Of a stretch of DNA of 45,211 bases, positions 3,946 to 37,217 are shown piece after piece. This DNA is from Candidatus Methanomethylicia archaeon (GTDB lineage Archaea; Thermoproteota; Methanomethylicia; CALHIW01). The translations under genes were made by a program, and so were the position numbers. The stretch lies in NCBI GenBank assembly GCA_038845975.1, contig JAWBQF010000022.1:1-45211 (forward strand). The letters are read 5' to 3'. A model generated the notes under the pieces. It was not told the origin of the DNA. It was given only the letters and a program-made list of their open reading frames with translations, and did no database searches. Each line of letters opens with the position of its first letter. Position 1 is the stretch's first letter.

Positions 3946-3953
3946 GTGGTTTC

Positions 3954-4415: not shown

Positions 4416-4427
4416 ACCTAAAACTTT

Positions 4428-4920: not shown

Positions 4921-4924
4921 TTTA

Positions 4925-4998: not shown

Positions 4999-5039
4999 GG
5001 TAAGAATAGCCGATAAATATTTATGAATGAGTATTATCT

Positions 5040-13628: not shown

Positions 13629-13756
13629 GCTTTGTGGCTTAACTCTGAAATTTGCAAATTCAAGTTTACATAAAGTACGAAAAGCTTAATAAGCATTCCT
13701 ATAACCATAGTATTTAATGATATAGATTACGAGAAATGAATATTAAGCCACAAAGC
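13629..13756 (+). mobile_element. 128-bp MITE, copy 1
   Basis: 14-bp TIR GCTTTGTGGCTTAA; flanking direct repeat (t)caattaa; 126/128 identical to reverse complement of 36109-36236. Confidence 0.92.
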
Positions 13757-13937
13757 TCAATTAACCTATACTTAATTGTAGAAATGATAAAGTACACTAT
13801 TTGATTAGGGAACAAGAGCGAATGATTAAATTAAGAATACTGCAGTTCAGAACTATTAGAGTATCTCATGTATACCGTATTATCGTATTATTCTATAAAG
13901 CGATGAATTTATTAATAAATGAATGCTAGTAATAATT

Positions 13938-15769: not shown

Positions 15770-15826
15770 AAACTCTCATGTTTGAGATGGATAAATATTT
15801 TTCCAAGTGTATTACAGATGTAGTAC

Positions 15827-19206: not shown

Positions 19207-21339
19207 ATGAAAGAATATATGGAGAAAGCATATGAGTATGCAAGAGAAACATATTATGGTATAGTAAAAAGGGCTGAATGCATAGCATATGGGATTCTTG
19301 AAAAAGAAATTTCATACACAATTGCCCTCAAGGTCCAGCCACCAGCACAGAATGCAAACTATACAATAGAAAAAGCATCAAAAGATACCCAGTATTCTCC
19401 GATTAAGGAGGAAGTTGATCTTATAGGATCTTCAGACGAGTTTAGAATATGCATTTTAGAGAATGTTCCAGGATTTCCATATGATAAATGCAAATACTAT
19501 CAGGCATACGGGATAATGGGCAAGATAGACATTTACATACCAGTAAAAATTGAGGTTTCAAAAAGAGTTGAAGGCAAGCCGGAAGACTTTATTCCATATG
19601 AAGTTTCAGCAATAATAGAATTGGCTGATCCACCAGAAAAACGACCAAAAGGAAGAAATGGAGCAAAATTTATAGATTCCATTATAAAAAAGGTTCCAGG
19701 AGGCGACAACTGTCCAGACATATTTGCTCCAAATGACTTCAGTGACAGGTGTAGAAGTAAAGGCGGCATAGACAAGATACAAAAAATAATATTGGATGAA
19801 AATAAAAAGGAATTTAAACTCTATAATTCTAATGCAGTCTTAGTACCAATAAAGGAAGTTGACGAAAGTAAAAAAGGCTATGCAAAAATATATTTACATT
19901 TTCCACCCATCAATGGAAATAATTATAGTCTTAAAATAAAACTTATCAATGGATGTGAAGAAGCTGTTTTAAAAGACAAGAATAATCCAAACTTACAAGT
20001 ACCTTATGTTCAAACTCCAACAATAACAATATGGAAAAGAGTTACGATAGAAATGATAGCTCTACAGGAGGGAATAAAATATGAGGACATAAACTGGAAA
20101 CTTATAAAGTCAACATTTTCACCTGCCTTTATAGAAGTTGAGGAACCGCCGCCGGGAAAAAGATACACGATAATGATGAAAGATTGGATGGATTATTTGG
20201 AAAAGGTAGTTTATAGTACTTGGCAAACTAATGCATGGAAAATATATAAAAATGCTAAATATACTACTATTCATCAACAAGACTTTGGTAGCTATTCTTT
20301 CCCCCAACCCCACAATAATATACCGAATTCTCAACTATTAACACCACCAGACAATAATCCAAAAAATCCTAACGAAACAACTTGGATGTTTTTAATGAAT
20401 ATAGCTAAGGAGATTTTTAAAGATATGCTTAATAAAATCAATAAAAATTATTACAACTTAATATCTTATCCTCTAAAAGGATATAATATTGGCTTCTGCG
20501 TTCTATTATGTAAACCTCCATTTTTGGGGTCAAGAGTTGGAGGATTACACTTTGGTAATAAACAGTTCTATTTTGTCTCAGGATGGAATATGGAAAAGAA
20601 ATTCGTCCACGAGCTTGGGCATGCGCTCTTTTTAACTCATGGGGCAACATATCTTGTAAGAGAATCTGATTATAAATTTATAACAAGTCGTGAAGAACTT
20701 GGTTCTGAAGGACCATACTGGGATGATCATGACAGCGAAGACATGATGTCATGTGTAATGTCATATTTTGCTAATGTTAATTGGCACTTCTGTGGTCTAT
20801 GCCAACTAAAGCTAAGATTATATGATAAGGAGAAAATGATAACAGGCAAAGACAATATCTTAAGAAAAATGTTGTATAGTAAAAAACCGAAAGTTTACTG
20901 GGTTGAAGATGTTCTCAAACAATCACAAAATGGAAAAATTCCCTGGCTTAAATTCCATGCAAACTCTAAATTCATTCTCAACAAAGGCGATGAAAAAGAG
21001 CTTAGATTAATTCCGTTATATCCTCCTGAAATTGTAAACAACGTAGATTATTACAAGGATTTAACAGGATTTACAAAAGGTATAAAGGGATCAAGTCCTG
21101 GTAGAGGATCCTGGCTTGTAGAAATAGAGGATCATGATTCAGGGCAATCTCGTATGGGAAACGTTAATGTCACAAAAAAGGGTAATTTTTGGATTTCAAC
21201 CATCAAAATCAACTACAGAGGGAAGACAACAGTAAAGTATAGAATTTATTACGACATAAATAAGTTTGTAGAAAGCGACCCACTAGTTATTGAAACAATA
21301 GAGGAACAAATGAGTAAGGTTGATAATTTTGAGCTTTAA
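19207..21339 (+). CDS. Large protein with metzincin-like Zn-metallopeptidase domain
   Basis: HELGHALFLTH, Met-turn-like CVMSY and FCGLC; A-rich codon usage unlike neighbours. Confidence 0.75.
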   Translation: MKEYMEKAYEYARETYYGIVKRAECIAYGILEKEISYTIALKVQPPAQNANYTIEKASKDTQYSPIKEEVDLIGSSDEFRICILENVPGFPYDKCKYYQAYGIMGKIDIYIPVKIEVSKRVEGKPEDFIPYEVSAIIELADPPEKRPKGRNGAKFIDSIIKKVPGGDNCPDIFAPNDFSDRCRSKGGIDKIQKIILDENKKEFKLYNSNAVLVPIKEVDESKKGYAKIYLHFPPINGNNYSLKIKLINGCEEAVLKDKNNPNLQVPYVQTPTITIWKRVTIEMIALQEGIKYEDINWKLIKSTFSPAFIEVEEPPPGKRYTIMMKDWMDYLEKVVYSTWQTNAWKIYKNAKYTTIHQQDFGSYSFPQPHNNIPNSQLLTPPDNNPKNPNETTWMFLMNIAKEIFKDMLNKINKNYYNLISYPLKGYNIGFCVLLCKPPFLGSRVGGLHFGNKQFYFVSGWNMEKKFVHELGHALFLTHGATYLVRESDYKFITSREELGSEGPYWDDHDSEDMMSCVMSYFANVNWHFCGLCQLKLRLYDKEKMITGKDNILRKMLYSKKPKVYWVEDVLKQSQNGKIPWLKFHANSKFILNKGDEKELRLIPLYPPEIVNNVDYYKDLTGFTKGIKGSSPGRGSWLVEIEDHDSGQSRMGNVNVTKKGNFWISTIKINYRGKTTVKYRIYYDINKFVESDPLVIETIEEQMSKVDNFEL

Positions 21340-22780
21340 AGAAAATCTTAAACTTCAAATAAAGTTTAAGAGAAGAAAGTTTGTTAGGGGAGAATCTATT
21401 CCAGTAAGGGTTTGCCTAGAAAATGTAGGTTCAGACACTCTATTAATTAACGAACTAACATCTTTATCAAGTTCTTTATATTTTAAAATTTTGGGAAAGT
21501 CAGGTTTTAAGAAATCGTTTACGCAACTTAGCTGGCTTTCACGTGAAGGCATCATACTACCCCCACCTGAAACAAAAACTTTTACGTTATCTCCAAATAG
21601 TAAAAAATGTTTGGACTTAGATTTGACAAAAATTTGTGGAGAACTAGCTGAAGACCTTTATAAAATAAAGGCAACATACACCTCTCACGGAATACTTTTC
21701 ATAGATTCAGAAATTGTCCGGATAAAGATTATACCATCAAAACCAGTATACATTTCATCAACTAGAGATTATTTAAGATATGTTTATAATCCAATATATA
21801 GTGTTTGGATTAATAAATATGACACGAAATACTTCTTATATTTAATGATGAACAGTCCAAACTTTCCTAAAAACATTTGGTACAATAAGTGTATAACGAG
21901 ATTAGATAAACCTTATGAGGTGCATGTTGCATTGCCTGAAAATTACGACCAAGGAAAAAATTGTATAGTTTGGAGTGAAAAAAACACTCTCTTTAAATGT
22001 ATTGTAGAAGATGAAAAGTTTTCTCTGAAAGGTTTCGAATTACCCTTCCAGGTAGACCGCATACTTGAACCGGCATATTTTTGTGAAGATGGAGTTTTAA
22101 TAACTTTAGCATACAGTTTTGTAGACAATTCTTCAACTATATATTTGATTAAGATAGGAGAAGACGGAAATGTTCAAATAAAATCTCTAGAAACATTCAA
22201 AGGAGTATTGGATGAATATAATCTTGTCTATGATGAAAGAACACGAGTACACCTAGTTTATACGATAAAAGGATACAATGAATGTTATTATATTAAAATT
22301 TTTGGCGAAAACCTAGAAAAAGAGAGTAAAAGCATACTTTTTAAGAGCAAAAGCCAATGCTTTGCACTACAGCTTTCAAATAATTGCATAAGTGATGAAG
22401 GAGAAAGAATTTTAGCCTTACACTATCTAATATTAGAAGACGATAGATTAAATGCCCACATTCTAAATGTTAATGAAAGGGTTGAAGTAAAAAACATTTT
22501 TATACCGGTTCAAAAAGAGCTTAGGTTAAGGTGTATAGATGTTATTTTAGACGAAACCTGCATGCCACACTACCTCTTCCAAGACAAAAATGGCATACTA
22601 TGGTATCAGCCAGTAGAAGGGGACATGATGCAGGCCTCCGAAAAAGGTGAAGTATGTCCTGGAAACATAGAGTTTCCAAAACTATTAATATCGTCAAGTC
22701 TAAGTATACATCATGGAATATTCATTAGATATATCAAAGATAGAAGAAATTTTGTGTACAAGAAGCTTGAGAAACTTTAA
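21320..22780 (+). CDS. Hypothetical beta-rich protein coupled to the peptidase
   Basis: 486-aa ORF overlapping the upstream stop; same A-rich composition; Ig-like GESIPVRVCLENVG N-terminus. Confidence 0.75.
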   Translation: MIILSFKENLKLQIKFKRRKFVRGESIPVRVCLENVGSDTLLINELTSLSSSLYFKILGKSGFKKSFTQLSWLSREGIILPPPETKTFTLSPNSKKCLDLDLTKICGELAEDLYKIKATYTSHGILFIDSEIVRIKIIPSKPVYISSTRDYLRYVYNPIYSVWINKYDTKYFLYLMMNSPNFPKNIWYNKCITRLDKPYEVHVALPENYDQGKNCIVWSEKNTLFKCIVEDEKFSLKGFELPFQVDRILEPAYFCEDGVLITLAYSFVDNSSTIYLIKIGEDGNVQIKSLETFKGVLDEYNLVYDERTRVHLVYTIKGYNECYYIKIFGENLEKESKSILFKSKSQCFALQLSNNCISDEGERILALHYLILEDDRLNAHILNVNERVEVKNIFIPVQKELRLRCIDVILDETCMPHYLFQDKNGILWYQPVEGDMMQASEKGEVCPGNIEFPKLLISSSLSIHHGIFIRYIKDRRNFVYKKLEKL

Positions 22781-24016: not shown

Positions 24017-24790
24017 TCAATCTATAGGCACTTCTGGATATATGTTGATTACCTCCCCCTTAAACTCCATTTCCCTATGGGTATAGTAAACGTTTTTCAA
24101 ATATTTTTTAGCTATTTCTACAGCTTCAATTACCTCTTTAGGGGAGGGGGATCGCCATGGCACATTGCCGAACGGCATGAAGCCATCGATTCTATACGGT
24201 ATATATGGATTAATATTTGCAATGAATTTAGCTATTTTCTCAATTTCATCTAGTCCAACCAATCCTGGAATTAAAATGCTTTCCGCCATAACTTTAATCC
24301 TGCTTTCACTAGCAAGCTTAAAATTATCTAGAACAGGCTTATTAGTTTGCCCTGTATAGAAATAGTGGATATCATCATTGTATGCTCTAATACTTATACA
24401 AATACTTGTAAGACCTGCTTTCTCCAGCTTTCTTATCATTTCCCAGTCTAAGATATAGCCATTAGTTGTCAAATAGGTTTTAATATTGAAATCATTAAGC
24501 AGCCGTATTACCTCCGGCAACTCTTCATCAAGAGTAGGTTCAGCTCCACCTAGAATAGCCTCTCCAGTATTGATTTTTCCAATAATAGACTTAAACTCAC
24601 TTAAAGTTAATAGCTTAATATGCTTAATTTCTTTGAGGCGGCGTTTTAAATCTTCTGGGAGATGATAATACCATATAGTATCCTTTAAATAGCAGCCTCT
24701 ACATTGAAAGTTGCATCCCTGAAAAGATATATAAATAGAATTATCATATGTATGTTGTACAATCTGATAAATCCTCGTCATCTCCATCAC
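24017..24790 (-). CDS. Radical SAM protein, activase-like
   Basis: GCNFQCRGC, GGAEPT, TNGY and LIPG motifs; paralogue of 26210-27034. Confidence 0.9.
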   Translation of the reverse strand: MMEMTRIYQIVQHTYDNSIYISFQGCNFQCRGCYLKDTIWYYHLPEDLKRRLKEIKHIKLLTLSEFKSIIGKINTGEAILGGAEPTLDEELPEVIRLLNDFNIKTYLTTNGYILDWEMIRKLEKAGLTSICISIRAYNDDIHYFYTGQTNKPVLDNFKLASESRIKVMAESILIPGLVGLDEIEKIAKFIANINPYIPYRIDGFMPFGNVPWRSPSPKEVIEAVEIAKKYLKNVYYTHREMEFKGEVINIYPEVPID

Positions 24791-24940
24791 TTAACAAATA
24801 GTTTAAATAAACTCGCTTAAAGCTTTGCTGTTTAGTAAATCTGTCTAAGTAGGATTAGGTAAATTAATTTAAAAATAAGTAGTTAGATCTAATGTTTTTA
24901 ATATTTAAAGGTTGTTATGGTCTACAATAATGTTTAATTA

Positions 24941-25035
24941 TCATACTATAAGCAACATCATAACATATATGAAAGATATATTATCAGTAATCATGATGAA
25001 TAGGATTGAAGCTGAAGATGATGGAACACTATGTT
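24941..25035 (+). repeat. Repeat family B, copy 3
   Basis: Contains the 40-bp core plus the extension shared with 18819-18935. Confidence 0.85.
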
Positions 25036-25047
25036 TTCAGCGATAGG

Positions 25048-25093
25048 TTTATAAGTTTAATTTTTTAGGTAGAATTGCCTGGTAAAATTTCCT
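25048..25093 (+). promoter_or_regulatory. TATA box plus two tandem candidate operator sites
   Basis: TTTATAAG at 25048; GGTAGAATTGCCT (25068) and GGTAAAATTTCCT (25081). Confidence 0.55.
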
Positions 25094-25109
25094 ATAAATA
25101 AGTGAGAAT

Positions 25110-26213
25110 ATGAATTGGAAGCTGGTTTCAGCTATCTTAGTTATAGCTTTGATAATAGTTGGCTATATAGCTATCCAATCCTTAACTACTTATAAAACCT
25201 ACACCATTACTAGTACTGAGTATAGAACAACTGTAACAACAGCTATCGAATATAGAACAGTAACAAAAACAGTAACAACTCCACCTCCAAAGTATCCGTT
25301 AACAGTTATGGATTTTCTAGGTAGAAATGTAAATATTACTAAGCCTCCACTAAGAATTGTTTCCTGTTCTCCACTATGTACGGAGGTTGCTGCTGTACTT
25401 GAACTTACAGATTTTATTGTCGGCGTTGATGATTATACTGATTTTCCTCCAAGTATTGTTAAGCTTAAGGAGCAGGGTAAGGTTTCAAGTGTTGGTGGTG
25501 TTACAACTTTAAGCGTTGAAGCTGTTGCTACGCTTAAACCTGATTTAGTTCTAGTTTCAGCAAGCCTCCAGAAGAAGTTTATACCTACGCTTGAGGAGCT
25601 TGGATTAACAGTTATAGCTTTAGATGCTAGAAACATTAATGATGTTTATAGTGAGATATTGATTCTAGGTAAAGTTACAGGTAGGGAGGAGCTTGCTGAG
25701 AGGATTGTTAATGAGATGAAGGATAGGATTGAAGCTATTCAGCAATCCCTCGCGGCTGTTAGAGTTAAGGTTAAGGTTTTCCAGTCTTCATGGCTTGAAC
25801 CAATATGGACTACAGGTAATGGAACATTCCTAAACGATATAATAAGACTTGCTGGAGGATACAATGTGTTTATGGATGCTAGTGGATGGATAACTGTAAG
25901 CCCTGAATCTATAGTTGAGAGGAATCCTGAAGTTATATTTATTGGATGCACAATGATGGGTTTAAAACCTGAGGATGTTGAGTTAAAGCTAAAACAGATT
26001 CCAGGATTAGAGAATGTAGAGGCTGTAAGAAAGAATAGAGTCTACTTACTTTACGAGCAGGCTGAAAACATATTTGTAAGAGCTGGACCGAGAGTTGCTG
26101 AGGCTATTGAGCTTCTAGCTAAAATACTATACCCTGAAGTATTCAATACTAATATTCCGAATGTTATAGGGGATAATTATTTAAACTACGTTAAGCCCAT
26201 GGTGAAGCAATGA
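25110..26213 (+). CDS. btuF: BtuF-like ABC substrate-binding protein, membrane anchored
   Basis: N-terminal TM helix, Thr-rich linker, YPLTV.DFLGR.V.I..PP.RIVS, LKPDLV and RAGPRV. Confidence 0.8.
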   Translation: MNWKLVSAILVIALIIVGYIAIQSLTTYKTYTITSTEYRTTVTTAIEYRTVTKTVTTPPPKYPLTVMDFLGRNVNITKPPLRIVSCSPLCTEVAAVLELTDFIVGVDDYTDFPPSIVKLKEQGKVSSVGGVTTLSVEAVATLKPDLVLVSASLQKKFIPTLEELGLTVIALDARNINDVYSEILILGKVTGREELAERIVNEMKDRIEAIQQSLAAVRVKVKVFQSSWLEPIWTTGNGTFLNDIIRLAGGYNVFMDASGWITVSPESIVERNPEVIFIGCTMMGLKPEDVELKLKQIPGLENVEAVRKNRVYLLYEQAENIFVRAGPRVAEAIELLAKILYPEVFNTNIPNVIGDNYLNYVKPMVKQ

Positions 26214-27034
26214 ATACTAAAATATTCCACATAACTTTTTATGATTATGACTTATCAGCATACATACACTTCCTAGACTGCAACTTTAAATGTAGAGGAT
26301 GTATAAGAAAGATAAGCATATGGGATAATCACCTACCTACCAATGTAAGAAACAATCTTAAACTGTTGAGAAGCTTAAAGATTGAGGAGCTTAGAGATAT
26401 TGTAAATATACTAATTCGTAAATACAGCTTGAAACGTGTAGTTCTCGGTGGTGGTGAACCTACAACAGATAGCTCTCTACCATCAATACTTTCACTATTA
26501 GAGTCTTTAAATATTGAGGTTAAACTACTGACAAATGCTTACAGTATGGATAGTGAGGTAGCTAGTATGCTGGCCCGTAAGGGATGTGAGGCTATTGTAA
26601 GTATTAAATCAATTGATCCCAGTAAGCATCTAGACTATACAGGCTTTCCTCTCAATCGGGTTTTAGAGAATTTTTCAGGAATGTATAGGCTTGGTGTAAA
26701 TGTATCTGTTGAAACAATACTTATTCCAGGCTTTAATGATCCTATCGATATAGTAGGTATAGCTAAATACATATCATCAATAAATAGTGGAATACAATTA
26801 ATTATAGATTCATATGTTCCTGTACCCGGCTCTTCATGGAGGAGACCGAATATGAATGAGCTTGAAGAAGCTGAATATCTATCTAAACAGTATCTTTCAA
26901 ATGTTTATTGTAGAGGTAAAGTAATATCGGAAGGTAGAGGTAGAGTATATTTAGTATATCCAAATCCCCAGGATAACCTTAATATTCCTGAGTTTGCAGG
27001 CTATAATATTTCAAATTGTTTTGAGGGAATTTAA
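26210..27034 (+). CDS. Radical SAM protein, activase-like
   Basis: CNFKCRGC, GGGEPT and ETILIPGFND; ATGA overlap with btuF. Confidence 0.9.
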   Translation: MNTKIFHITFYDYDLSAYIHFLDCNFKCRGCIRKISIWDNHLPTNVRNNLKLLRSLKIEELRDIVNILIRKYSLKRVVLGGGEPTTDSSLPSILSLLESLNIEVKLLTNAYSMDSEVASMLARKGCEAIVSIKSIDPSKHLDYTGFPLNRVLENFSGMYRLGVNVSVETILIPGFNDPIDIVGIAKYISSINSGIQLIIDSYVPVPGSSWRRPNMNELEEAEYLSKQYLSNVYCRGKVISEGRGRVYLVYPNPQDNLNIPEFAGYNISNCFEGI

Positions 27035-28053
27035 TGTACGTTAAGGCTAAGAAGCTTAAACTACTAGTAACTACATTATCCGGCATAGTTATTCTATTTC
27101 TTCTAAGTATTCTCTCATTATCTATTGGCGCTTCACGTATTGGATTTCTAGATGTTCTACAGGCTATTAGGGGGATTGGTGATCAATCTATTGTTAATGT
27201 GGTTTGGAATATTAGGTTTCCAAGACTTCTCTCAGCTATGCTTGTCGGCTTCCTTCTTTCTGTTTCAGGAGTTGTTATGCAGACTCTATTCCGTAATCCA
27301 CTTATAGATCCATATATTGGAGGTATTGCTTCAGGAGCTGCTTTCGGGGCATCTTTATCCCTCCTACTTGGATATACTCTTCTATCCCCTTCATCACCAT
27401 ATGCAATACCATTAACATCATTTATTGGCTCCTTCACCTCCCTTCTATTAACACTCCTACTTTCACGTTTAGCCGGTGGATCACCATTAAGCCTCCTACT
27501 TTCAGGAATTGCTGTAGGTCTCTTCTTCTCTTCAGCTACAACTGTAGTTATAGTGGCTGGTGGGGAGAAGGCTCATGGAGTTATTTTCTGGCTTTTCGGA
27601 AGCTTTGTAACATCTTCATGGCGTTTCCTAGCAATAGCATTCCCAGTATCGATTATAGCCATTATGTACGTGTTTCTAAATGCTAGAAGGCTTAATGCTC
27701 TCCTCCTAGGTGATGAAGATGCCTCCCAGCTTGGAGTAAGCGTTAAAGTGTTAAGATATACTCTACTAACTATTCTATCTATACTTTCAGCTCTAGCAGT
27801 ATCCTTCAACGGTATTATTGGATTTATAGGTTTAATGGCTCCACATATATCTAGACTTATTGTTGGTAGTGATCATAGGCTCCTCCTACCTTTAAGTATG
27901 CTTATAGGCTCAACAATTCTTGTTCTTGCAGATGTTGCTGCTAGAATGCTTATAGCTCCAGCAGAGCTTCCTGTAGGTGCTATAACCTCCGTTATGGGTG
28001 TACCTGTCTTTATACATCTATTATTAAGAAGGGGTAGATACTATGAGCTTTAA
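27034..28053 (+). CDS. btuC: BtuC/FecCD-family permease
   Basis: IRFPR, MQTLFRNPL.DP, LGDEDASQLGV, GIIGFIGL.APH and ELPVG motifs. Confidence 0.9.
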   Translation: MYVKAKKLKLLVTTLSGIVILFLLSILSLSIGASRIGFLDVLQAIRGIGDQSIVNVVWNIRFPRLLSAMLVGFLLSVSGVVMQTLFRNPLIDPYIGGIASGAAFGASLSLLLGYTLLSPSSPYAIPLTSFIGSFTSLLLTLLLSRLAGGSPLSLLLSGIAVGLFFSSATTVVIVAGGEKAHGVIFWLFGSFVTSSWRFLAIAFPVSIIAIMYVFLNARRLNALLLGDEDASQLGVSVKVLRYTLLTILSILSALAVSFNGIIGFIGLMAPHISRLIVGSDHRLLLPLSMLIGSTILVLADVAARMLIAPAELPVGAITSVMGVPVFIHLLLRRGRYYEL

Positions 28054-28822
28054 GGAGATAATTGTTAGTGATTTATCGTTTAGTTATGGTAGGGTTGAAG
28101 CATTAAGGAAGATATCGTTCACTATACGTGGAGGTGAATTTATAGGTATTCTAGGCCCTAATGGCTCCGGTAAAACTACACTACTGAAATGTCTATGTAG
28201 TCTTCTAAAACCATACGGTTCAATATATATTGATGGAACATCAATATATAAGTATAGTGCCAGGGAAATTGCAAGAATGATCTCCTATATTCCACCAACA
28301 CCTCTTCCAGGTGGGCTATCAGTATTTGATACCGTCTCCCTAGGTAGGACTCCCCATATGAAGGGTTTATGGTGGGAGTCTAGAGAGGATGAGGATCTAA
28401 TTCAATACTCTCTAAAATCTTTAAATCTGGATGGATTAGCTGACAGGAGGGTTTGTGAGCTTAGTAGTGGGGAGCAGCAGAGGGTTAAGATAGCTAAGGC
28501 TATTACACAGCAGCCTAAAATACTGCTTGTAGATGAGCCTACAGTTCATCTTGACTTAAAGCATCAAGTTGAGATTATGGATATTCTTAAAAGCCTAACA
28601 TATAAGGGGTTAGCTGTCATAGCTGCACTCCACGACTTAAATCTAGCACTAACATATAGCGATAAAGTCGTAGTTTTAAATAGTGGTAGAATTGTTGCTT
28701 ATGGTGATCCGAAAGTAATCCTTACAGAGGAGTTGATAGAGAGGGTTTATGGTGTTAAGGTTAAGATCATGTGGGATAATGAGTTAAACCATCCAGTAAT
28801 AACAATACTTAAAGCGGGCTGA
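28043..28822 (+). CDS. btuD: BtuD/FecE-family ABC ATPase
   Basis: GPNGSGKTT, LSSGEQQRV, DEPT.HLD and HDLNLA motifs. Confidence 0.9.
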   Translation: MSFKEIIVSDLSFSYGRVEALRKISFTIRGGEFIGILGPNGSGKTTLLKCLCSLLKPYGSIYIDGTSIYKYSAREIARMISYIPPTPLPGGLSVFDTVSLGRTPHMKGLWWESREDEDLIQYSLKSLNLDGLADRRVCELSSGEQQRVKIAKAITQQPKILLVDEPTVHLDLKHQVEIMDILKSLTYKGLAVIAALHDLNLALTYSDKVVVLNSGRIVAYGDPKVILTEELIERVYGVKVKIMWDNELNHPVITILKAG

Positions 28823-28828
28823 TGTTTT

Positions 28829-29596
28829 ATGAGGATAGTTAGCTTATGGCCCTCGATATCAGATACCATATCTAAACTCGGATTAGAGGATTCTATTATT
28901 GGTGTTACACCATACTGTTTAAAATACTTAAAGTTAAAGCATAGAGTTGTTGGGAGCTGTCTTGAGGTCGATTCTCCTAAGCTTAGTAATCTAAAACCTG
29001 ACATAGTACTCCTAGAAGGTAGACTGCAGAAGGGTATTGCTGAGAAATTGATGAGGGAGGGATATAGTGTATATCTAATTCCATTTCCAAGAAGTATATT
29101 TGGAATTCTTGAAAACATAATTCTCATAGGTTCAATACTTGGAAGGCTTACTGAAGCTAGGAGGCTAGCCTACGAAATACTTAACGAGTTGATTGGTCTT
29201 AAAAGGAGGGAGCTAGCGGGATCCATATATGTTGAGCTTTGGCTTGGTGATGATATTGTTACATGCGGATCATTAACGTATATCGATGATATGCTTTCCT
29301 GGATTGGTCTTCAAAACATATTTAGTGATGTAGCATCCGAATTCTTTAAGCCTAACTTTAACCATGTTAAGATAAGGAATCCCCACTTAATTGTAGTAAA
29401 TTATGAACCCTATCCTAAGCATAGAGAGAGGATATCTAATATACTGGAAATCTTTAAGGAGAGGGGATGGGAGGATATGGAGGCTATTAAGAGGAGGAAA
29501 GTAATACTGATAGAAGAGAGCAGTACTGTTAACCTAGCTCATCACGGTCCATCAACAATTACCAGTACATTAAGATATCTCTTATCAAGGTCTTAG
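28829..29596 (+). CDS. Second BtuF-like binding protein without signal peptide
   Basis: Starts directly at MRIVSLWPS; LKPDIV, NIFSD and HHGPS; no hydrophobic N-terminus. Confidence 0.85.
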   Translation: MRIVSLWPSISDTISKLGLEDSIIGVTPYCLKYLKLKHRVVGSCLEVDSPKLSNLKPDIVLLEGRLQKGIAEKLMREGYSVYLIPFPRSIFGILENIILIGSILGRLTEARRLAYEILNELIGLKRRELAGSIYVELWLGDDIVTCGSLTYIDDMLSWIGLQNIFSDVASEFFKPNFNHVKIRNPHLIVVNYEPYPKHRERISNILEIFKERGWEDMEAIKRRKVILIEESSTVNLAHHGPSTITSTLRYLLSRS

Positions 29597-29597
29597 A

Positions 29598-30451
29598 ATG
29601 AATAGCCAAACCTATAGGAAAATACCATCTATAGAAGCTATAGTAAGCCCAGTAAGGAGGATATATATTAATCTAGCAGGATGCAATTTTAATTGTAGAT
29701 CCTGTTTTGCAATAGCTAAGTATGATGTTGGCAGAGAGTTTACAGTTAGCAATCTTGTAGAATTTATACTTAAAATATGCAGTTATATATGGGGGATATA
29801 GCCAGCGAAGCTGTATTAACAGGCGGTGAGCCAACTCTTAACCCCTCCTATATGTTTAATCTGATCGAGAGGTTAAAGAATCTTAATATGAAGGTTGAGG
29901 TTTCAACTAATGGATACCTACTTGCTAATAAGGATTATATAGATAAGCTAAAGAAATGTTGTGTTGACCTAGTTAAAATAGATTTAAAGGCATTCAGTAA
30001 TGGCATACATCAATGGTATACGGGTAAGGATAATGAAAACGTATTGAAAGCTATTAAGCTATTACATGATCAAAATATAAATTTCCTTATACGTACAATC
30101 TTTATCCCTGAAGTAGTTGATTTTAATGAGATCGAGAGGATAGCATTATTCATAGCAGGTATTAGTAGGAATATTCCATATAGAATATACCAATTTGTAC
30201 CTAGCCCTGGAATTTCAAGAAGACCTACAAGAGATGAGATGATCAAGGCTTTAGAGATAGTTAAACAGTATTTAAATGATGTTAATGCACTAATTGATGT
30301 TGAATCCTTCCGTGCTGATTGGAGACATATTGAAATATGTTCTGACGATCTTTATGAAGTATATAGGGATATAGCTGAAAAATCGGAAAAAGCCATTAGA
30401 GGATGGAAGCAAAGATATAGAATAGTTAAAATGAGCGAGATATCCAAATGA
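29598..30451 (+). pseudogene. Radical SAM protein, activase-like, split by a 1-nt frameshift (possibly an assembly error)
   Basis: GCNFNCRSC in the first ORF and TGGEPT/STNG/IDLK in the second; one extra G in GGGGG at 29791-29795 fuses them. Confidence 0.8.
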
Positions 30452-30466
30452 ATTTGGGATGGCGTT

Positions 30467-31156
30467 ATGGTTAAAGCCTATATAGTCGGCGTCGGTCCCG
30501 GCTCATCTGAGTACTTAACGGAAAAGGCTAGAAAAGTAATTAGTGAAGCAGATATTATTGTTGGCTGGAGGCTTGATTTACTGCCTGCAGATAAACTAAT
30601 TAAAAATAAGGAAGTCTACATACAGGATGTTGATAACTATATTGAGGTTGTTAGTAGAGCTGCTGAAAGAGCTAAGCTAACAGGTAAAAGTATTGCCGTG
30701 TTGAGGATAGGTGATCCATGCATTTCATCAGGTCTAAACGGTCTTCTAAAAATATTTAAGGACTTTGATGTCGAAATTATTCCCGGAATAAGCTCCATAC
30801 AAGTTGCAGCATCTATAGCGAAAATAAACCTTGATGAATCCGTTATAGTTTCCCTTCATGATGGTGGGAATGCTATTAGAAAGATGGAGTTTATAGCTAA
30901 TATGCTTAATTATGGTAGACATGTAATACTACTTACAGGCCCTGAGCTTAAATTAGAGGAAGCTGCGGGAGCTCTAATCGCTAACGGTATAAGTAAGCAA
31001 ACACCAGTTATTGTCTGTGAAAATTTAACGCTTAGAGGAGAATATGAAGGACTTCATGAAAACGTGTTTGTAGGGGTATTAGAGGATCTCCTATTGAGGA
31101 GATTTTCATGGCTTTCAATAGTTGTTATTAAATGTAGGGATCATAATGAATATTAA
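30467..31156 (+). CDS. CbiE-like tetrapyrrole (class III) methyltransferase
   Basis: IVGVGPGS.EYLT..A, GDPC.SG, IPGISSIQ.A, SLH and CENLT motifs. Confidence 0.88.
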   Translation: MVKAYIVGVGPGSSEYLTEKARKVISEADIIVGWRLDLLPADKLIKNKEVYIQDVDNYIEVVSRAAERAKLTGKSIAVLRIGDPCISSGLNGLLKIFKDFDVEIIPGISSIQVAASIAKINLDESVIVSLHDGGNAIRKMEFIANMLNYGRHVILLTGPELKLEEAAGALIANGISKQTPVIVCENLTLRGEYEGLHENVFVGVLEDLLLRRFSWLSIVVIKCRDHNEY

Positions 31157-32172
31157 CCCCCCATCACTAGTTCTTTGGTTTGCTACGGAGAAATGCGATG
31201 TCGGATGTAAACACTGCTGCTATCCACCCCTAAGTGGAAGAGAGCCGGGAACTGATGAAGCTAAGCTTTTAATATCAAATGTAGCTAAGCTCGGAGCTAA
31301 ATACTTTGCTTTTATAGGTGGTGAACCACTACTTAGAGAAGATATTACTGATCTAGTTAAATACTGTATTAATTGTAGGTTGAAGCCCTATATAGTTACG
31401 AAGGGTGGAAGATTAGCCGGCGGGGAGGCTGAGAAGCTAGCTAAAGACCTCCATAGGTTAGGAGTTAAGATTACGGTTGCTGTTGATGGTGTAACCCATT
31501 CAGTTATAGATGCGATATGCGGAAAGCCTGAAATATACGATAGGATTATGAATACCATTAAGGTATGTTTAAAACACAATATTCTTCAAGGCTTCGTAAC
31601 TGCGGCATTAAAGCCAAACATCTCCGAGATACCGTTAACACTTGATTTAGCATCAAAGATCAATTTGGAGAGATGTGTAATATTTGGAATTAGGCCTACA
31701 GGTAGAGGTAGAAGTACATTTAATATGTTTGCCCCCTCACCTTTAGAATACGAGGAATTCATGAGGAAGATAGCTTTAGAAGCTAGGAGGGGAAGATGGA
31801 GGCAGGAAGTTTTCGTTTATGATCCGTTATTTATGAGAATACTTAAAGAGACTTCTTCACAACAGTACTCTAAAATATGTAGGATAGTTATATTTTGATA
31901 TAGATTCTATGGGTTATGTAATGCCATGTCTCTTCGCATCTTTAAGGTTTGGAAACATACTGGAAGATCCTATAGAGGAGACACGTTACAATATGATTGT
32001 TAAGACGAGAGATCTAAGAGATCCTGAAAAGCTAAAGGGAAAATGTAGATCCTGTAATTATAGGAGTATATGTGGAGGATGTAAGGTTAGATCATATGAG
32101 TTAGGTGGAGACTGGTTTGGGGAGGATCCATTATGCAGCTACAACCCGGAGGAATCTACATCGTCGGGATAG
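31146..32172 (+). pseudogene. Radical SAM/SPASM protein (NirJ/Ahb-like) split by a frameshift near 31886
   Basis: CDVGCKHC and GGEPLLR; SPASM Cys motifs (MPC, C..C.....CGGC..R, DPLC) lie in the second ORF. Confidence 0.8.
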
Positions 32173-32801
32173 GTCCCGGAGATCCTCAATATCTAACTCT
32201 AAGAGCAAGAGGAATTCTGGAAAGAGCTGATATTATAATTGGATTTAGACAGGTATTATCCATAGTAAGGAATATGACTGGTGGAGTAATGTTAGCTCTT
32301 GATAACGATGTAGTTAATACATTAAAATACGTAAGTATGGAAGCTAAGGCAGGAAAGCTATGTGTAATATGCTGCTGGGGTGATCCTAAATTCTCTAATG
32401 TAGAGTTTATTAAACTCATTAGAGAAGTATGTGAAGATGTTAAAGTTATATGTGGGATAAGCTCTATACAGATAGCTTGCTCTATACATGGATTACCGAT
32501 GGAGGAGGCAATATTTATAACATTTCATAAAAGCGGATCATTAGATAACGATAAGAATGAATTATTAACATTCCTAAGGAATAGTACGAGGAAGATAGTA
32601 TTGCTACCTAGACCGTGGGATTTCATGCCAAGGGAGATAGCGGAGTTCCTAATAAACAATAATTTGCCTCCTGAAATTAAATGTACTATATATGAAAACC
32701 TTACTCTAGAAAATGAGAGAATTAGGAGATTTAGGTTGCTTAATCTAGCACATTGTAGTGAGAGATTTAGCGATTTAACCATAATGATTATAGAACGTTA
32801 A
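32133..32801 (+). CDS. Second CbiE-like tetrapyrrole methyltransferase
   Basis: IVGIGPGDPQYLT, GDP.FS, GISSIQ.A, TFH and YENLTLENE motifs. Confidence 0.88.
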   Translation: MQLQPGGIYIVGIGPGDPQYLTLRARGILERADIIIGFRQVLSIVRNMTGGVMLALDNDVVNTLKYVSMEAKAGKLCVICCWGDPKFSNVEFIKLIREVCEDVKVICGISSIQIACSIHGLPMEEAIFITFHKSGSLDNDKNELLTFLRNSTRKIVLLPRPWDFMPREIAEFLINNNLPPEIKCTIYENLTLENERIRRFRLLNLAHCSERFSDLTIMIIER

Positions 32802-32813
32802 AATCATTTAGTT

Positions 32814-33830
32814 ATGTATTCTCCACATCATATAGCCTGGCAAACAACATATAAATGCAACTTGTCATGTATTCACTGCTATGCAGCTGGTGTAAGTAAA
32901 AATTTACTCTCAACAACTGAAGCTAAAAGAATCATTTTAGAGGCATTAGAGATAGGTGTAAAGGCATTTGTGTTTACAGGAGGCGAACCCCTACTTAGAG
33001 ATGACATTATGGATTTGATAATTTATGTCTCTGATTTAGGTTTAAAACCTATACTAGCAACTAACGGTACCCTACTAGATGAAAATAGAATTAGAATATT
33101 AAAGGAATTTAAGGCATCAGTAGCAATAAATCTTCCGGCAATCAATGAAGAGATACACGAAAAATTCACGGGCGTAAAATCATCATTAAGGCTTAAGCTT
33201 AACACAATCAATAAATGTAGGGAATATGGATTAGAATGCTCCATTGGAATTGCTATTACTAAGTTAAACATGGTGGATATTGATTCCATAATTCAACACA
33301 TGGAGAATATGGAGATCGATATACTCGCCACCATACCCTGCGGTAGAGCCTCACCAGATATTATTCCAAGCGGTTTTGAATACTATTCCCTCCTTAAACA
33401 TCTTCATGATAAATGGAAAGCATACCCAATGAATATGTATGGAAAAGCTAGAATATATGTTTATGAACCCATATACAATGCTTTACTTGCTATAAGTAGC
33501 TATATGGAGAGTTTAAGTAGGCTTTGCTCAATAGGTGAAACCCTACATGTAATGGAGGATGGTAGTATTAAAACTTGTATTTATCTACCATACGTTTTAG
33601 GTAACGTAAGAAAGACAAGTTTAGCTAATATATGGAGGAAGCTAGTCTATGATAAACTTATAGGTAGACTTAGAGATCCCAAAGAGCTTAAGGGATACTG
33701 TAATGTTTGTAAATTAAGGAATGTATGTGGAGGATGTAGAGCAAGAGCCTACCACATGGTAGGAGATTTATTTGCCTCAGATCCTATATGTAGCCTACCT
33801 ATTAGTACTAACGGTAATATCTCCATATAG
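32814..33830 (+). CDS. Radical SAM/SPASM protein (NirJ/Ahb-like)
   Basis: W.TT..CNLSCIHCY, TGGEPLLR, ATNGT and CNVC..CGGCRARAY..GD..SDPIC motifs. Confidence 0.9.
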   Translation: MYSPHHIAWQTTYKCNLSCIHCYAAGVSKNLLSTTEAKRIILEALEIGVKAFVFTGGEPLLRDDIMDLIIYVSDLGLKPILATNGTLLDENRIRILKEFKASVAINLPAINEEIHEKFTGVKSSLRLKLNTINKCREYGLECSIGIAITKLNMVDIDSIIQHMENMEIDILATIPCGRASPDIIPSGFEYYSLLKHLHDKWKAYPMNMYGKARIYVYEPIYNALLAISSYMESLSRLCSIGETLHVMEDGSIKTCIYLPYVLGNVRKTSLANIWRKLVYDKLIGRLRDPKELKGYCNVCKLRNVCGGCRARAYHMVGDLFASDPICSLPISTNGNISI

Positions 33831-34384: not shown

Positions 34385-35395
34385 GTGAAGGCTGCAGTTC
34401 TTAGAAGGATAGATTTAATTGAGAATAAACCTATTATTATTGAGGATTTAGATATTCCTATCCCTAAACGTAAACAAGTAGTTATAAAGGTTTCTGTATG
34501 TGGTATTTGCCGTACCGAGCTTGATGAGGCTGAGGGAAGGCTGAAGCCTAAGCTTCCAGTTATTCCTGGACATCAAGTTATCGGTAGGATATATGAGTCT
34601 GGAGCCGAGGTATCCAAGTATAGAGGGGGTGAAAGAGTTGGTGTTGCATGGATATATCACTCATGTGGTAAATGTAGCTTCTGCTTAAGAGGACTTGAAA
34701 ATCTATGTTATGAATTTAAAGGTACTGGATGTGATGTTGATGGTGGATATGCTGAGTACATGGTTGCCTACGAGGATTTCACATATCCAATCCCTAACGT
34801 ATTTACAGATGTTGAAGCAGCTCCACTACTATGTGCTGGCGCTATAGGTTATAGAGCTCTAAAACTTACAGGTATGAGGAATGGAGAGATTATAGGGCTT
34901 TACGGCTACGGATCCTCAGCACATATTACTCACCAATTAATCAAGTATCTATATCCAGACAGTAAGGTCTACGTATTTACTAGAAGAAGAGGAGATGAAC
35001 CTAGCAGGCTAGCTGAGAGATATGGTGCAGAATGGGTTGGTGAAACAGGTGAAACACCACCTAGAAAGATTAACTATGCTATAGATACAACCCCTACAGG
35101 AATACCTGTAAAGGAGGCTTTAAGAAATCTAGAGAAAAACGGAAGACTAGTTATGAACCTAATAAGAAAGGAAACACTAATTCCAGAGCTTGACTACACG
35201 ATCCTATGGGGTGAAAAAGAAGTTAAAACCGTTGCAAACATTACAAGGAAAGATGTTGAAGAATTCCTGAAGTTAGCAGCTGAAATACCTATTAAACCTG
35301 AAGTAAGAGAATTCAAATTAGAGGAAGTAAATGATGCTCTATTCATGCTTAAACATGGAAAATATAGGGGAAGCGGAGTATTAAAGATAAGTTAA
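34385..35395 (+). CDS. Zinc-dependent alcohol dehydrogenase family protein
   Basis: CGICRTELD, PGHQ, CGKCSFC..ENLC and APLLCAG motifs. Confidence 0.92.
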   Translation: MKAAVLRRIDLIENKPIIIEDLDIPIPKRKQVVIKVSVCGICRTELDEAEGRLKPKLPVIPGHQVIGRIYESGAEVSKYRGGERVGVAWIYHSCGKCSFCLRGLENLCYEFKGTGCDVDGGYAEYMVAYEDFTYPIPNVFTDVEAAPLLCAGAIGYRALKLTGMRNGEIIGLYGYGSSAHITHQLIKYLYPDSKVYVFTRRRGDEPSRLAERYGAEWVGETGETPPRKINYAIDTTPTGIPVKEALRNLEKNGRLVMNLIRKETLIPELDYTILWGEKEVKTVANITRKDVEEFLKLAAEIPIKPEVREFKLEEVNDALFMLKHGKYRGSGVLKIS

Positions 35396-36108
35396 ATCCA
35401 GCTGGAATATTTACCAGTTAGCTAAGTACTAGATGCTTATGCCAAGTTTAAAATTCATAGTCTAAACACTAGGAAATATGCTTAAGCTTTGAAATTACTT
35501 TAATCATAGTTAAGCCGTTTACATGAAGTCCCCATTATTAAAGTTAAACATACTTCCAAAAACATGATAGGGAATAACATTGCCTCAAAGAATACATAGC
35601 AAAACCATTAACAAAGCCTATTGATTTACTTTCATGAATCTAATTTCAGTATTTTCCTAAAGCCATATCTAGCTCAACCCATACAGCTTTGATTAGAACA
35701 CATGACACTACACATACAATACATCAAGGTATGGCTTCACCTACCTTCTATAAATTATATTCTGAGTAAAAGGTTTAATTACATCAGTTTTGTTTAAACT
35801 ATTACCTATACTTACAGTAGATGTAGACTTCAATATTCTAGATTTAAAGGATTAAGAGCCTATGAAAGCAGTATAGTTAAGGAGGGAGTGTTGCTGGAGG
35901 AACTGTTATAGCTGTAATTATGAAGATAGGATTTCCATAGCAAAGAATGATATACTTAGAGAAGTTGAGGAAAACTATGAGCAACTAATAGGCTTAAAAT
36001 AGCTCTTCACATCAACTCTACATCATAGTATATGTGTAACATGTTAAATTGTCTAGATCATTCTCAACGTATTGCTGAAAGTAATTATTAGAGTTAGTGA
36101 TAGATTTA

Positions 36109-36236
36109 GCTTTGTGGCTTAATATTCATTTCTCGTAATCTATATCATTAAATACTATGGTTATAGGAATGCTTATTAAGCTTTTCGTAATTTATGTAAA
36201 CTTGAATTTGCAAATTTCAGAATTAAGCCACAAAGC
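36109..36236 (-). mobile_element. 128-bp MITE, copy 2
   Basis: Inverted near-identical copy of 13629-13756; flanking direct repeat atagattt(a). Confidence 0.92.
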
Positions 36237-36242
36237 AATAGA

Positions 36243-36271: not shown

Positions 36272-37213
36272 ATGTATGTTTCCATAGAGAATTTTAAAGA
36301 TGATTTGCTTAAAATATTGTATGGTGTAGTTAGTGAAGATATTGGTGAAGGTATTCTTCTTTCAGGTGGATTAGACACTTCAATACTTGCTTATTTACTA
36401 CGTAGATATGTAAAGCCTGAAGCTGTAACTGTATGTTATGGCTATGATGCACCGGATTTATATTATGCCAAGATAGTAGCTGAGTTTTTAGGTTTAAAGC
36501 ATCATGTTAAAAGCTTTACTGTGGAGGATGCTTTAGGGGCTACTAGAAGTATTATTAGGATTCTTGGAACTTTTGATCCTATGGAGATTAGGAATGATAT
36601 ACCTCTATATATTGGGTTAAGATACGCTAAGAGTTTAGGTTTAAAATCCATTGTAACAGGTGATGGTGGAGATGAGCTTTTCGCAGGCTATCCATTCCTA
36701 TTTAAGCTTAAATGTGAGGAAGTTGAGGAATGGATTAGAAACGTATCTAGTAGATGGTTTTTCGCTGCTAAGCCTCTAGGTGAATCTATTGGTTTAAGGG
36801 TAATACAGCCCTTCACCAATACCAAGATTGTAGGTTTCGCATTGAAAATCCCTGTTGAGTTAAAGATTGGAGAGTTTAGAGGGGTTAAGTATGGTAAATG
36901 GATTCTACGTAAGGTTTTTGAGGAGTATTTACCTAGTGAAGTTGTTTGGAGACCTAAAAACCCATTAGAGATAGGTAGTGGAAGCGTAAAGCTTTCGGAA
37001 ATTTTTAGAGTTGATGACTACGAGTTTAGGGAGCTTTCTAAAATCGTTAAGCTTAGAGACGCTGAGCAAGCATTCTATTTTAAAATATATCTTGAAATCT
37101 TCAAGGAACCTCCTAAGCCTGGAAATGGTGAATATAAATGTCCAAGCTGTGGTGGAGGAGTTAAAGCTGGACAGAGATATTGTAGGGTTTGTGGATATTA
37201 TCCCTTGCGGTGA
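36272..37213 (+). CDS. Asparagine-synthase-like PP-loop protein (no glutaminase domain) with C-terminal Zn ribbon
   Basis: LLSGGLDTS, TGDGGDELFAGY, KWILR, WRPK and CPSCG..CRVCG motifs. Confidence 0.88.
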   Translation: MYVSIENFKDDLLKILYGVVSEDIGEGILLSGGLDTSILAYLLRRYVKPEAVTVCYGYDAPDLYYAKIVAEFLGLKHHVKSFTVEDALGATRSIIRILGTFDPMEIRNDIPLYIGLRYAKSLGLKSIVTGDGGDELFAGYPFLFKLKCEEVEEWIRNVSSRWFFAAKPLGESIGLRVIQPFTNTKIVGFALKIPVELKIGEFRGVKYGKWILRKVFEEYLPSEVVWRPKNPLEIGSGSVKLSEIFRVDDYEFRELSKIVKLRDAEQAFYFKIYLEIFKEPPKPGNGEYKCPSCGGGVKAGQRYCRVCGYYPLR

Positions 37214-37217
37214 ATTT

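Follow-up and report, generated by a model that had tools for sequence, protein, structure and literature searches.

CbiE-like methyltransferases and radical SAM genes within a corrinoid uptake and salvage locus of a Candidatus Methanomethylicia archaeon

Why does an archaeon that appears unable to make a tetrapyrrole carry homologues of a corrin-ring methyltransferase and a set of radical S-adenosylmethionine (SAM) enzymes among the genes of its only FecCD importer? The locus that raises this question occupies positions 24017–33830 of contig JAWBQF010000022.1 of a Candidatus Methanomethylicia archaeon. We analysed the complete 45-kb contig (45,211 nucleotides; hereafter the window) in the context of its genome (G000; 2.77 Mb, 93% complete). 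Near-identical DNA is present in 14 sequencing runs from several studies, all labelled hot springs metagenome or coming from such studies; no RNA run was listed among them. Open reading frame (ORF) and profile checks over the locus confirmed the gene order and families of the original prediction, which had read it as a tightly coupled operon for corrinoid or other tetrapyrrole uptake and tailoring; neighbouring genes overlap or are separated by no more than 15 nt (Table 1). A Peripla_BP_2 binding protein, a FecCD permease and an ABC ATPase are joined in one operon with a second binding protein (BtuF2), two small radical SAM genes (rSAM_A, rSAM_B), two CbiE-like methylases (CbiEl1, CbiEl2) and two radical SAM/SPASM genes (SPASM1, SPASM2), and a third small radical SAM gene (rSAM_div) diverges from the importer. 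All five radical SAM loci that had been predicted are present, two of them (rSAM_B and SPASM1) frameshifted in this assembly. The original prediction had overlooked these frameshifts, the missing leader of BtuF2, the downstream salvage genes, and the AsnB-like and Dph6-like PP-loop genes that accompany the cassette. We propose that the cluster is an accessory corrinoid-processing module set within the sole importer and the salvage genes, with an imported corrinoid as its substrate and entry into the pathway before amidation; we see the chances of this as evenly balanced.

CbiE is the cobalt-precorrin-7 C5-methyltransferase of de novo B12 synthesis, in which C15 is methylated by CbiT. The genome contains three TP_methylase genes: CbiEl1, CbiEl2 and one Dph5-like gene on another contig (C3). 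Searches of the genome found no HemB, HemC, CbiD or CbiC and no other ring methylase (CbiL, CbiH, CbiF or SUMT-like); these corrin-partner searches did not include CbiT. CbiA and CbiP did not turn up in the genome either, not even in a tblastn search (E ≤ 1e-3) that took its queries from related loci. Since HemB, HemC, CbiD, CbiC and CbiA/CbiP are all missing, the organism seems incapable of tetrapyrrole synthesis, and all the more of making a corrin. With three TP_methylase genes and no CbiD, CbiC, HemB or HemC, the two methylases are not ordinary CbiE proteins of a pathway finished elsewhere. The pair occurs without a ring pathway in four genomes: G000, G036, G041 (Thermoplasmata) and G042 (Thermoprotei). 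Of these, G041 can still produce uroporphyrinogen and carries a SUMT-like gene. A role of the pair in place of SUMT was rejected because G000 and G036 lack HemB and HemC.

The window is a cobamide-salvage island around the genome's only FecCD importer: the permease is a sole copy, and BtuF1 and BtuF2 are the only such binding proteins. The earlier statement that no other cbi gene is present stands for ring synthesis but not beyond it, as CbiS, CobY, CobD, CobS and CbiB follow the locus and CobA lies upstream. The archaeal cobinamide salvage set (CbiZ, CbiB, CobY, CobS, CobA and ribazole phosphatase) is thus present. An apparent absence of CobT was disregarded, because the Pfam model also failed to find it in the controls Haloferax and Methanosarcina. 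Archaeal cobinamide salvage is listed in one part of a published account as BtuFCD, CbiZ/CbiS, CbiB, CobY, CobS, CobZ and CobA (PMC8305020), and BtuFCD beside CbiZ is used as a salvage marker in a section of another (PMC11697101). The importer proteins miss the NCBIfam equivalog cut-offs (BtuF 98.8 against 234, BtuC 222.5 against 334, BtuD 142.4 against 281), and we take the name BtuFCD from the neighbouring salvage genes here and in two related loci, L127 and L130. The cassette belongs to corrinoid uptake and salvage, as originally proposed, and the cobamide-salvage flanks make a corrinoid almost certainly the class of compound that it acts upon.

The island resembles known archaeal cobinamide salvage in having the same importer type and the downstream enzymes in one place. 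Salvage as known begins with cobinamide or a complete cobamide and does without methylases, radical SAM enzymes and amide synthetases; here nine extra genes are interleaved: three small radical SAM genes, two SPASM radical SAM genes, two CbiE-like genes, an AsnB-like gene and a Dph6-like gene. Cobamide remodelling by CbiZ and CbiR offers another comparison, as these enzymes are encoded beside corrinoid uptake genes and reshape scavenged cobamides; they differ in being hydrolases that act on the nucleotide loop. We know of nothing comparable to them that uses SAM chemistry on the corrinoid ring or side chains.

Both methylases belong to the family of CbiE and the CobL N-terminal domain. They pass the CbiE domain model TIGR02467 (cut-off 92.9; CbiEl1 120, CbiEl2 132.5), miss the full-length CbiE equivalogs (PRK05787; CbiEl1 at best 121.8 against 291, CbiEl2 189.8 against 302), and 2BB3 is among the nearest solved structures. 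In a maximum-likelihood tree of 55 rows, CbiEl1 and the fused or BtuF-adjacent forms make up a clade of their own (14 rows, support 100/99). The CbiEl2 clade (support 88/85) comprises nine paired copies and L019, from Dehalococcoidia. Its sister group is canonical CbiE from Nitrospinota, Verrucomicrobiota and others, encoded in ordinary cbi clusters. CbiD is nearby in none of the 15 pair-type loci, as against 36 of the 77 loci L019–L095. The GxGPG, GDP, PGISS, Q and H motifs common to canonical CbiE, SAM motifs included, are kept in both clades. CbiEl2 also keeps the PRPWDFMP loop and the K140 equivalent, while CbiEl1 lacks that loop, K140 and T188 and has invariant residues particular to its clade (W34, P40, Q53, Y58, F97 and W215). 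The arrangement thus departs from CbiE in several respects: two paralogues stand side by side instead of CbiE and CbiT, CbiEl1 forms a separate clade with an altered loop, and one relative is fused to a BtuF-like domain. A search for longer relatives of CbiEl1 returned only two TP_methylase-CbiG fusions; the BtuF fusion, in locus L134, escaped that search. The named archaeon Conexivisphaera calida has a CbiEl2 homologue that is 48% identical.

Related loci, retrieved by searches with the two methylases, define what is conserved. The conserved unit is the adjacent CbiEl1-CbiEl2 pair, often with a leaderless BtuF-like protein; the two methylase genes are directly adjacent in all seven other loci that hold both. 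The gene order in locus L013 (genome G036, 75% complete) and in L127 (an 84-kb metagenome contig, known as a contig only) is BtuF-BtuC-BtuD-rSAM_A-SPASM-CbiEl1-CbiEl2-AsnB-like-Dph6-like, and in L127 this cassette stands back to back with CobY-CobS-CbiZ-CbiB-CobD. L014 (genome G033) reads BtuFCD-rSAM_A-CbiEl2-Dph6-like; its Dph6-like paralogue is in two pieces (G033:C133:302–948), and G033 also holds the full canonical cbi pathway. L130 has CbiA and BtuD-BtuC-BtuF on the minus strand, then CbiEl1-CbiEl2-leaderless BtuF-CobA-CobD-CbiP-CbiB-CbiZ-CobS-CobY. L026, from a Thermoprotei metagenome-assembled genome (MAG), has CbiEl1-CbiEl2-leaderless BtuF, and L129 has the pair beside BtuF and BtuC. 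In L133, BtuF-like genes and a CbiEl1-like gene are followed by CobQ- and CbiA-type genes. L134 combines a CbiE-like gene, two small radical SAM genes, two CbiZ genes, CobA and CbiB with the fusion protein, whose 517 residues comprise a BtuF-like Peripla_BP_2 domain and a CbiE-like domain. This salvage locus also contains a class II-type ribonucleotide reductase (L134:3606–5363).

The core of the arrangement therefore recurs in other genomes: several archaeal lineages, and some bacteria, have the cassette genes together next to BtuFCD and CbiZ/CbiB/CobS genes. Close relatives are rare. In a sample of 401 genomes of the phylum, G036 is the only genome besides G000 with a close CbiEl1 (64% identity); 64 other matching genomes have single matches of at most 40% identity. 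Only G041 has a close CbiEl1 in a 401-genome sample of its own phylum, and no methylase match was found in the one other genome of the same genus as G000 (62% complete). The repeated methylase-SPASM order had suggested two parallel modification modules. This did not survive the comparison, as the relatives have one SPASM gene followed by two adjacent methylases; the alternation here is a lineage-specific local rearrangement, and the conserved SPASM copy is the frameshifted one, SPASM1.

The two binding proteins differ in their N-termini. BtuF2 begins with MRIVSLWPS, the first strand of the fold, and has no anchor; it is presumably cytoplasmic, and we propose that it is a carrier that presents a corrinoid to the enzymes. 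The position of such proteins suggests the same role: a leaderless BtuF follows the pair in L026 and L130, BtuF2 precedes rSAM_B and the pair here, and a binding domain is fused to the methylase domain in L134. Class III methylases are dimers, and for this reason the adjacent methylase paralogues suggest a heterodimer.

Table 1. Features of the window. Positions are those of the window; where two scores are set against each other, the second is the cut-off.
Feature	Positions	Strand	Description and evidence
CobA, ATP:corrinoid adenosyltransferase	9376–9930	+	PF02572 201.7 bits; TIGR00708 179.8 vs cut-off 167.75
Dph6-like PP-loop ATP pyrophosphatase	16783–17445	-	PF01902 162.6 bits; motif SGGKES
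rSAM_div	24017–24790	-	Small radical SAM, 257 aa, divergent from importer; PF04055 89.3 bits; motif CNFQCRGC
BtuF1	25110–26213	+	Substrate-binding protein; PF01497 (Peripla_BP_2) 126.1 bits; N-terminal membrane anchor, Thr-rich linker
rSAM_A	26210–27034	+	Small radical SAM, 274 aa; PF04055 66.2 bits
BtuC-like permease	27034–28053	+	FecCD 305.7 bits
BtuD-like ATPase	28043–28822	+	ABC_tran 108.5 bits
BtuF2	28829–29596	+	Leaderless Peripla_BP_2; PF01497 match from residue 3 = profile position 1
rSAM_B	29598–30451	+	Third small radical SAM; split at G5 run 29791–29795
CbiEl1	30467–31156	+	Divergent CbiE-like class III methyltransferase; PF00590 115.5 bits
SPASM1	31146–32172	+	AhbD/NirJ-like radical SAM/SPASM; orthologue of the SPASM gene in related cassettes; frameshifted
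CbiEl2	32133–32801	+	CbiE-like methyltransferase with canonical CbiE signature residues; PF00590 106.1 bits
SPASM2	32814–33830	+	Intact extra AhbD/NirJ-like radical SAM/SPASM paralogue
Zinc alcohol dehydrogenase-like gene	34385–35395	+	
AsnB-like synthetase	36272–37213	+	PP-loop SGGLDT, C-terminal zinc ribbon, no glutaminase domain; PF00733 146.9 bits
apgM-like metalloenzyme	37011–38255	+	PF01676 40.7 bits; apgM 114 vs 320; "proposed homoserine kinase" 59.9; membership uncertain
CbiS (CbiZ fused to CobZ)	38245–39339	+	Pfam; 243.5 vs 250
CobY-like	39336–39941	+	Pfam; 112 vs 250
CobD	39883–40998	+	Pfam; 213 vs 290
CobS	40991–41731	+	Pfam; 149.7 vs cut-off 110, passes
CbiB	41738–42685	+	Pfam; 328.5 vs cut-off 273, passes

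AhbD, NirJ and AhbC belong to the radical SAM/SPASM enzymes and act on tetrapyrrole side chains, by decarboxylation or removal. The two SPASM proteins resemble them in that these are the best-scoring families, in end-to-end alignment, and in the CX3CX2C motif and SPASM cysteines. PF04055 and PF13186 are matched in SPASM2 and across the two halves of SPASM1. SPASM2 is 25% identical to SPASM1 and has no close counterpart in the related loci. It passes none of the equivalog cut-offs (AhbD 196 against 500, NirJ2 185 against 500, AhbC 159 against 650), and the L013 orthologue of SPASM1 scores 182 against 500; a PDB sequence search with SPASM2 gave generic SPASM matches. With scores so far below the cut-offs, the SPASM enzymes do not look like ordinary AhbC or AhbD, in line with the original prediction. 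Two further differences are that the genome showed no siroheme or heme pathway and that the partners of the SPASM genes here are corrinoid genes. The affinity to AhbD and NirJ2 fits a possible role in tetrapyrrole side-chain chemistry.

SPASM1 requires a +1 shift at the TTTT run at 31893–31896, where the zero frame reads TTT TGA and stops at TGA 31896. Its N-terminal part (31122–31898) is 58–63% identical to the L013 and L127 genes, and the shift-read protein aligns without loss to intact orthologues, the residues …CRIVIF before and DIDSMGYVMPC after the shift facing …CMIGRYLDIDSSGNAMPC. We compared the contigs of four public runs (X7, X8, X9 and X11) over 29400–32400, together with L126, a metagenome contig 99.8% identical to the window (40 substitutions and one indel, which lies outside both frameshift sites). 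The T-run shift is present in all assemblies examined (four of four runs, and L126), and sequencing error was rejected on this ground. Selenocysteine at TGA 31896 was also rejected, because the remainder of SPASM1 is in a different frame. The TTT_TGA site resembles what we take to be a slippery codon followed by a stop. The gene may be a recently fixed pseudogene or may be recoded.

The three small radical SAM proteins are paralogues, rSAM_div being 38% identical to rSAM_A and 40% to rSAM_B. Counterparts of rSAM_A that are 42–47% identical follow BtuD in L013, L014 and L127; its ESM Atlas neighbours are uncharacterised archaeal radical SAM clusters only, and a PDB sequence search gave weak MoaA matches. 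rSAM_B requires a -1 shift at the G5 run at 29791–29795: frame 0, which carries the CNFNCRSC motif, stops at TAG 29799, and the remainder is in the -1 frame. The gene is whole in run X9, from another study, which has an extra G that is missing in X7, X8, X11 and L126, and the lesion is therefore polymorphic; the G-run shift may yet come from sequencing error. Such homopolymer variation between near-identical assemblies was seen both here (G5 or G6) and at 21978 (A7 or A6, in an ORF of 486 residues).

In their length of about 250–275 residues, their single N-terminal CX3CX2C cluster and their top weak NCBIfam matches, these small proteins resemble the glycyl-radical-enzyme activases PflA, NrdG and YjjW. 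The activase-sized, single-cluster radical SAM build is known for enzymes acting on large, protein-borne targets. The scores are far under the cut-offs, the best being that of rSAM_B (75.7 against 250.2, YjjW-type); the best matches of rSAM_div (MoaA and activases) likewise all fall far under theirs. No glycyl radical enzyme is encoded in the window, the only part of the genome where one was sought. The small radical SAM genes instead co-occur with genes for BtuF-like proteins and CbiZ, as in L134.

An indication of the point of entry comes from amide-forming enzymes. The AsnB-like protein (313 residues) aligns only to residues 224–508 of the 554-position AsnB model and scores 144.9 against 499, and AsnB is what a PDB sequence search returned. 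It is the sole copy in the genome, and in L013 and L127 a counterpart with 39–42% identity comes immediately after the methylase pair. The Dph6-like protein scores 117 against 197.3 for the archaeal Dph6 model and 143 against 250 for the TTX_0299 family, and better-scoring Dph6 proteins are encoded elsewhere in G000 (C19, PF01902 225.9 bits), G036 and G033. Because of the better copy elsewhere and the score under the cut-off, the window gene is, as judged from these matches, a cassette-linked paralogue and not the true Dph6; such paralogues directly follow the cassette in L013, L014 and L127. Where this could be checked, the pair occurs with CbiA and CbiP either within the locus (L130, L133) or elsewhere in the genome (G041, G042), and with the AsnB-like and Dph6-like genes in the two genomes where CbiA/CbiP were not found (G000, G036); L127 has both PP-loop genes. 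CbiA/CbiP (CobB/CobQ) are corrin side-chain amidotransferases. The PP-loop enzymes would do the same job, and CbiA/CbiP hold the equivalent place in L130 and L133; the AsnB-like and Dph6-like proteins have unrelated folds, and the analogy is drawn from complementary distribution only. An amidation set is kept although cobinamide salvage needs none, which suggests that the compound handled carries free carboxylates and hence that it enters the pathway upstream of cobyrinate a,c-diamide, a deduction from a few lineages.

From these observations we can sketch how the proposed module may work. An incomplete corrinoid would be imported by BtuF1-BtuC-BtuD and handed to the leaderless BtuF2 as cytoplasmic carrier. 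A CbiEl1/CbiEl2 heterodimer would C-methylate the macrocycle with SAM, the likeliest targets by homology being meso C5 and/or C15; as CbiC is absent, the substrate would not be ordinary cobalt-precorrin-7. The AhbD/NirJ-like SPASM enzyme would alter a side chain, and the small activase-sized radical SAM enzymes would work on the corrinoid held by the carrier. Free carboxylates would then be amidated by the AsnB-like and Dph6-like PP-loop enzymes, which would replace the missing CbiA and CbiP, and a product at the level of cobyric acid would enter the CobA, CbiB, CobY, CobS and CbiS steps. Entry at this point would be earlier than in known cobinamide salvage. Generalised to some archaea and a few bacteria, this amounts to an "early-entry" salvage, comprising import of an unamidated, incompletely methylated cobalt-corrinoid at the cobyrinic-acid level, docking on a cytoplasmic BtuF-like protein, completion of ring methylation by a CbiE-like heterodimer, side-chain chemistry by radical SAM enzymes that falls to other enzymes in de novo synthesis, and PP-loop amidation; we put this complete scheme forward tentatively and hold it less likely than not. 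A literature search, mainly of titles and abstract openings, brought up no account of corrinoid salvage loci that contain CbiE-like or radical SAM genes. We see the cassette as a variant within cobamide salvage, and potentially a new pathway if entry is indeed early.

Several observations weigh against this proposal. The literature searched documents no natural pool of under-methylated, unamidated corrinoids, and with CbiC not found a true cobalt-precorrin-7 to -8 reaction would lead nowhere. Two Thermoplasmata loci (L018 and L128) hold the pair alone, with no corrinoid gene beside it. The radical SAM genes are missing from the L130, L026, L129 and L018 versions and are therefore not part of the core. 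SPASM1, the conserved SPASM copy, may be dispensable or dead here, as its shift is present in every sampled population and four of its five single-nucleotide polymorphisms (SNPs) are nonsynonymous. The complementarity of the amidation genes is drawn from a handful of related lineages, and within it the lack of CbiA/CbiP in G036 counts for little because that genome is only 75% complete. The putative heterodimer and the carrier hand-off are deduced from gene adjacency and a single fusion.

The main rival to early entry is repair, in which the module would mend cobamides that hot, acidic water has damaged: hydrolysed propionamide side chains would be amidated again by the PP-loop enzymes or by CbiP, the radical SAM enzymes would reverse epimerisation or remove adducts, and the methylases would serve in a further repair step. 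Mild acid hydrolysis of B12 yields the b-, d- and e-monocarboxylic acids. All 14 runs carry the hot-spring label or belong to such studies, the relatives are MAGs of thermophile type (Thermoprotei, Nezhaarchaeales) along with the Conexivisphaera homologue, and the salvagers G041 and G042 keep CbiA/CbiP, for which cobinamide salvage has no need. We nevertheless regard repair as doubtful: the methylase pair is better conserved than any other part, yet C-methylation is not known to mend any kind of damage, and a CbiE-like gene also stands beside BtuFCD in two bacterial loci of uncertain habitat (L024 and L042).

The remaining readings are less likely than repair. The module could use a cobamide as cofactor, with BtuF2 holding it, the CbiE-like proteins methylating its cobalt with SAM and the radical SAM enzymes passing the methyl group on, in effect a split B12-dependent radical SAM methylase. 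Pfam-type scans found no B12-binding domain in any of the five radical SAM proteins, unlike class B radical SAM methylases; a binding protein is fused to a methylase in L134, and proximity to salvage genes equally suits a heavy user of cobamides. We consider it unlikely, as none of the loci contains a gene or peptide that might be the substrate, radical SAM genes are missing beside the pair in the core loci L130, L026 and L129, and the link to CbiA/CbiP or a PP-loop amidase would be left unexplained. There is similarly little probability that the CbiE-like proteins are non-catalytic escorts or sensors that take hold of the imported corrinoid and deliver it to CobA, CbiZ or CbiB. The residues lost from CbiEl1 and the constant nearness of the proteins to the importer would agree with this, but every SAM-binding motif is preserved in the two paralogues even between distant lineages, and a protein that only binds would not be expected to preserve them.

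Import and conversion of another tetrapyrrole (heme, siroheme or an F430-like compound), which the original prediction had allowed for, is very improbable. BtuF1 does match IsdE (85 bits), BtuD matches a heme ABC ATPase (217.8 against 261) and the SPASM enzymes are nearest AhbD and NirJ2; against this, the flanking genes are all of the cobamide nucleotide loop and salvage, every assignable neighbour here and in L127, L130 and L134 is cobamide-specific, and the genome has no methyl-coenzyme M reductase (MCR), HemB or HemC. Hardly more credible is a decaying remnant of a lost de novo pathway, a cluster on its way out, to which two frameshifts in one operon, the relaxed-looking SPASM1 SNPs and a MITE-like (miniature inverted-repeat transposable element) insertion before the AsnB-like gene might point, since the CbiEl1 clade occurs only in salvage settings and keeps 48–64% identity in three or more archaeal groups, as judged by titles or kinship, another population has an intact rSAM_B, and SNPs are synonymous in BtuF1, BtuC and BtuD (four of four) and in CbiEl1 (two of three).

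Possible regulatory sites were found in the related loci. Palindromes of the form TGGATGGA-N3-5-TCCATCCA lie upstream of CbiEl1 in L026, L129 and L130, and a palindrome GGTTGGATAATCCAACC lies upstream of BtuF in L127; these sites before the cassette may be a corrinoid operator. A palindrome search of the window gave only one TGGAT-N-ATCCA site, TGGATAACTTATCCA at 2776–2790, a chance-level count, and none before BtuF1; this one site stands just upstream of the UroD-family gene block.

The window has further features. The true start of the apgM-like gene is probably near 37215, and its product may be the enzyme of the L-threonine kinase step (EC 2.7.1.177), which a section of PMC8305020 treats as a gap in archaeal cobamide synthesis. 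In an operon with the Dph6-like gene, positions 14365–16786 (minus strand) encode a PfkB-family kinase, the S component of an energy-coupling factor (ECF) transporter and a 319-residue protein with no family match; copies of the S component and the 319-residue protein, 39–40% identical, end the L130 salvage locus (L130:15730–16617). By analogy with CblT/CblS, this operon may salvage a part of the lower ligand, for example alpha-ribazole. The block at 2776–7884 contains a UroD-family gene with weak MtaA-like matches (2833–3945), a DUF7479 gene (3939–4415), a CobW-related GTPase (5040–6149) and a radical SAM gene (6523–7884) whose product passes the TrsS model (519.8 against 490). It resembles the corrinoid methyltransferase and selenium-linked clusters described in part of PMC10418091. 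Two large overlapping ORFs of 710 and 486 residues (19207–22780) have no Pfam or NCBIfam match, and all four SNPs in the longer one are nonsynonymous. A MITE-like repeat of about 135 nt has copies at 36101–36240, between the cassette and the AsnB-like gene, and at 13625–13761, with at least 25 further copies in the genome (76–98% identity). An Rfam scan of the window at gathering thresholds gave no match, and a tRNA scan of the window found none.

In B12 ecology, organisms are at present divided into producers and salvagers, the latter taking up cobinamide or complete cobamides. If the early-entry reading is true, earlier or damaged corrin intermediates would also be traded and completed after uptake, as shared goods in microbial communities. 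The scoring of B12 dependence from genomes would change, because a lone "CbiE" is currently read as noise or as a producer marker. The cassette would also bring new corrinoid chemistry, for example the action of radical SAM enzymes on a corrinoid held by its carrier, and amidation by PP-loop enzymes in the manner of CbiA and CbiP.

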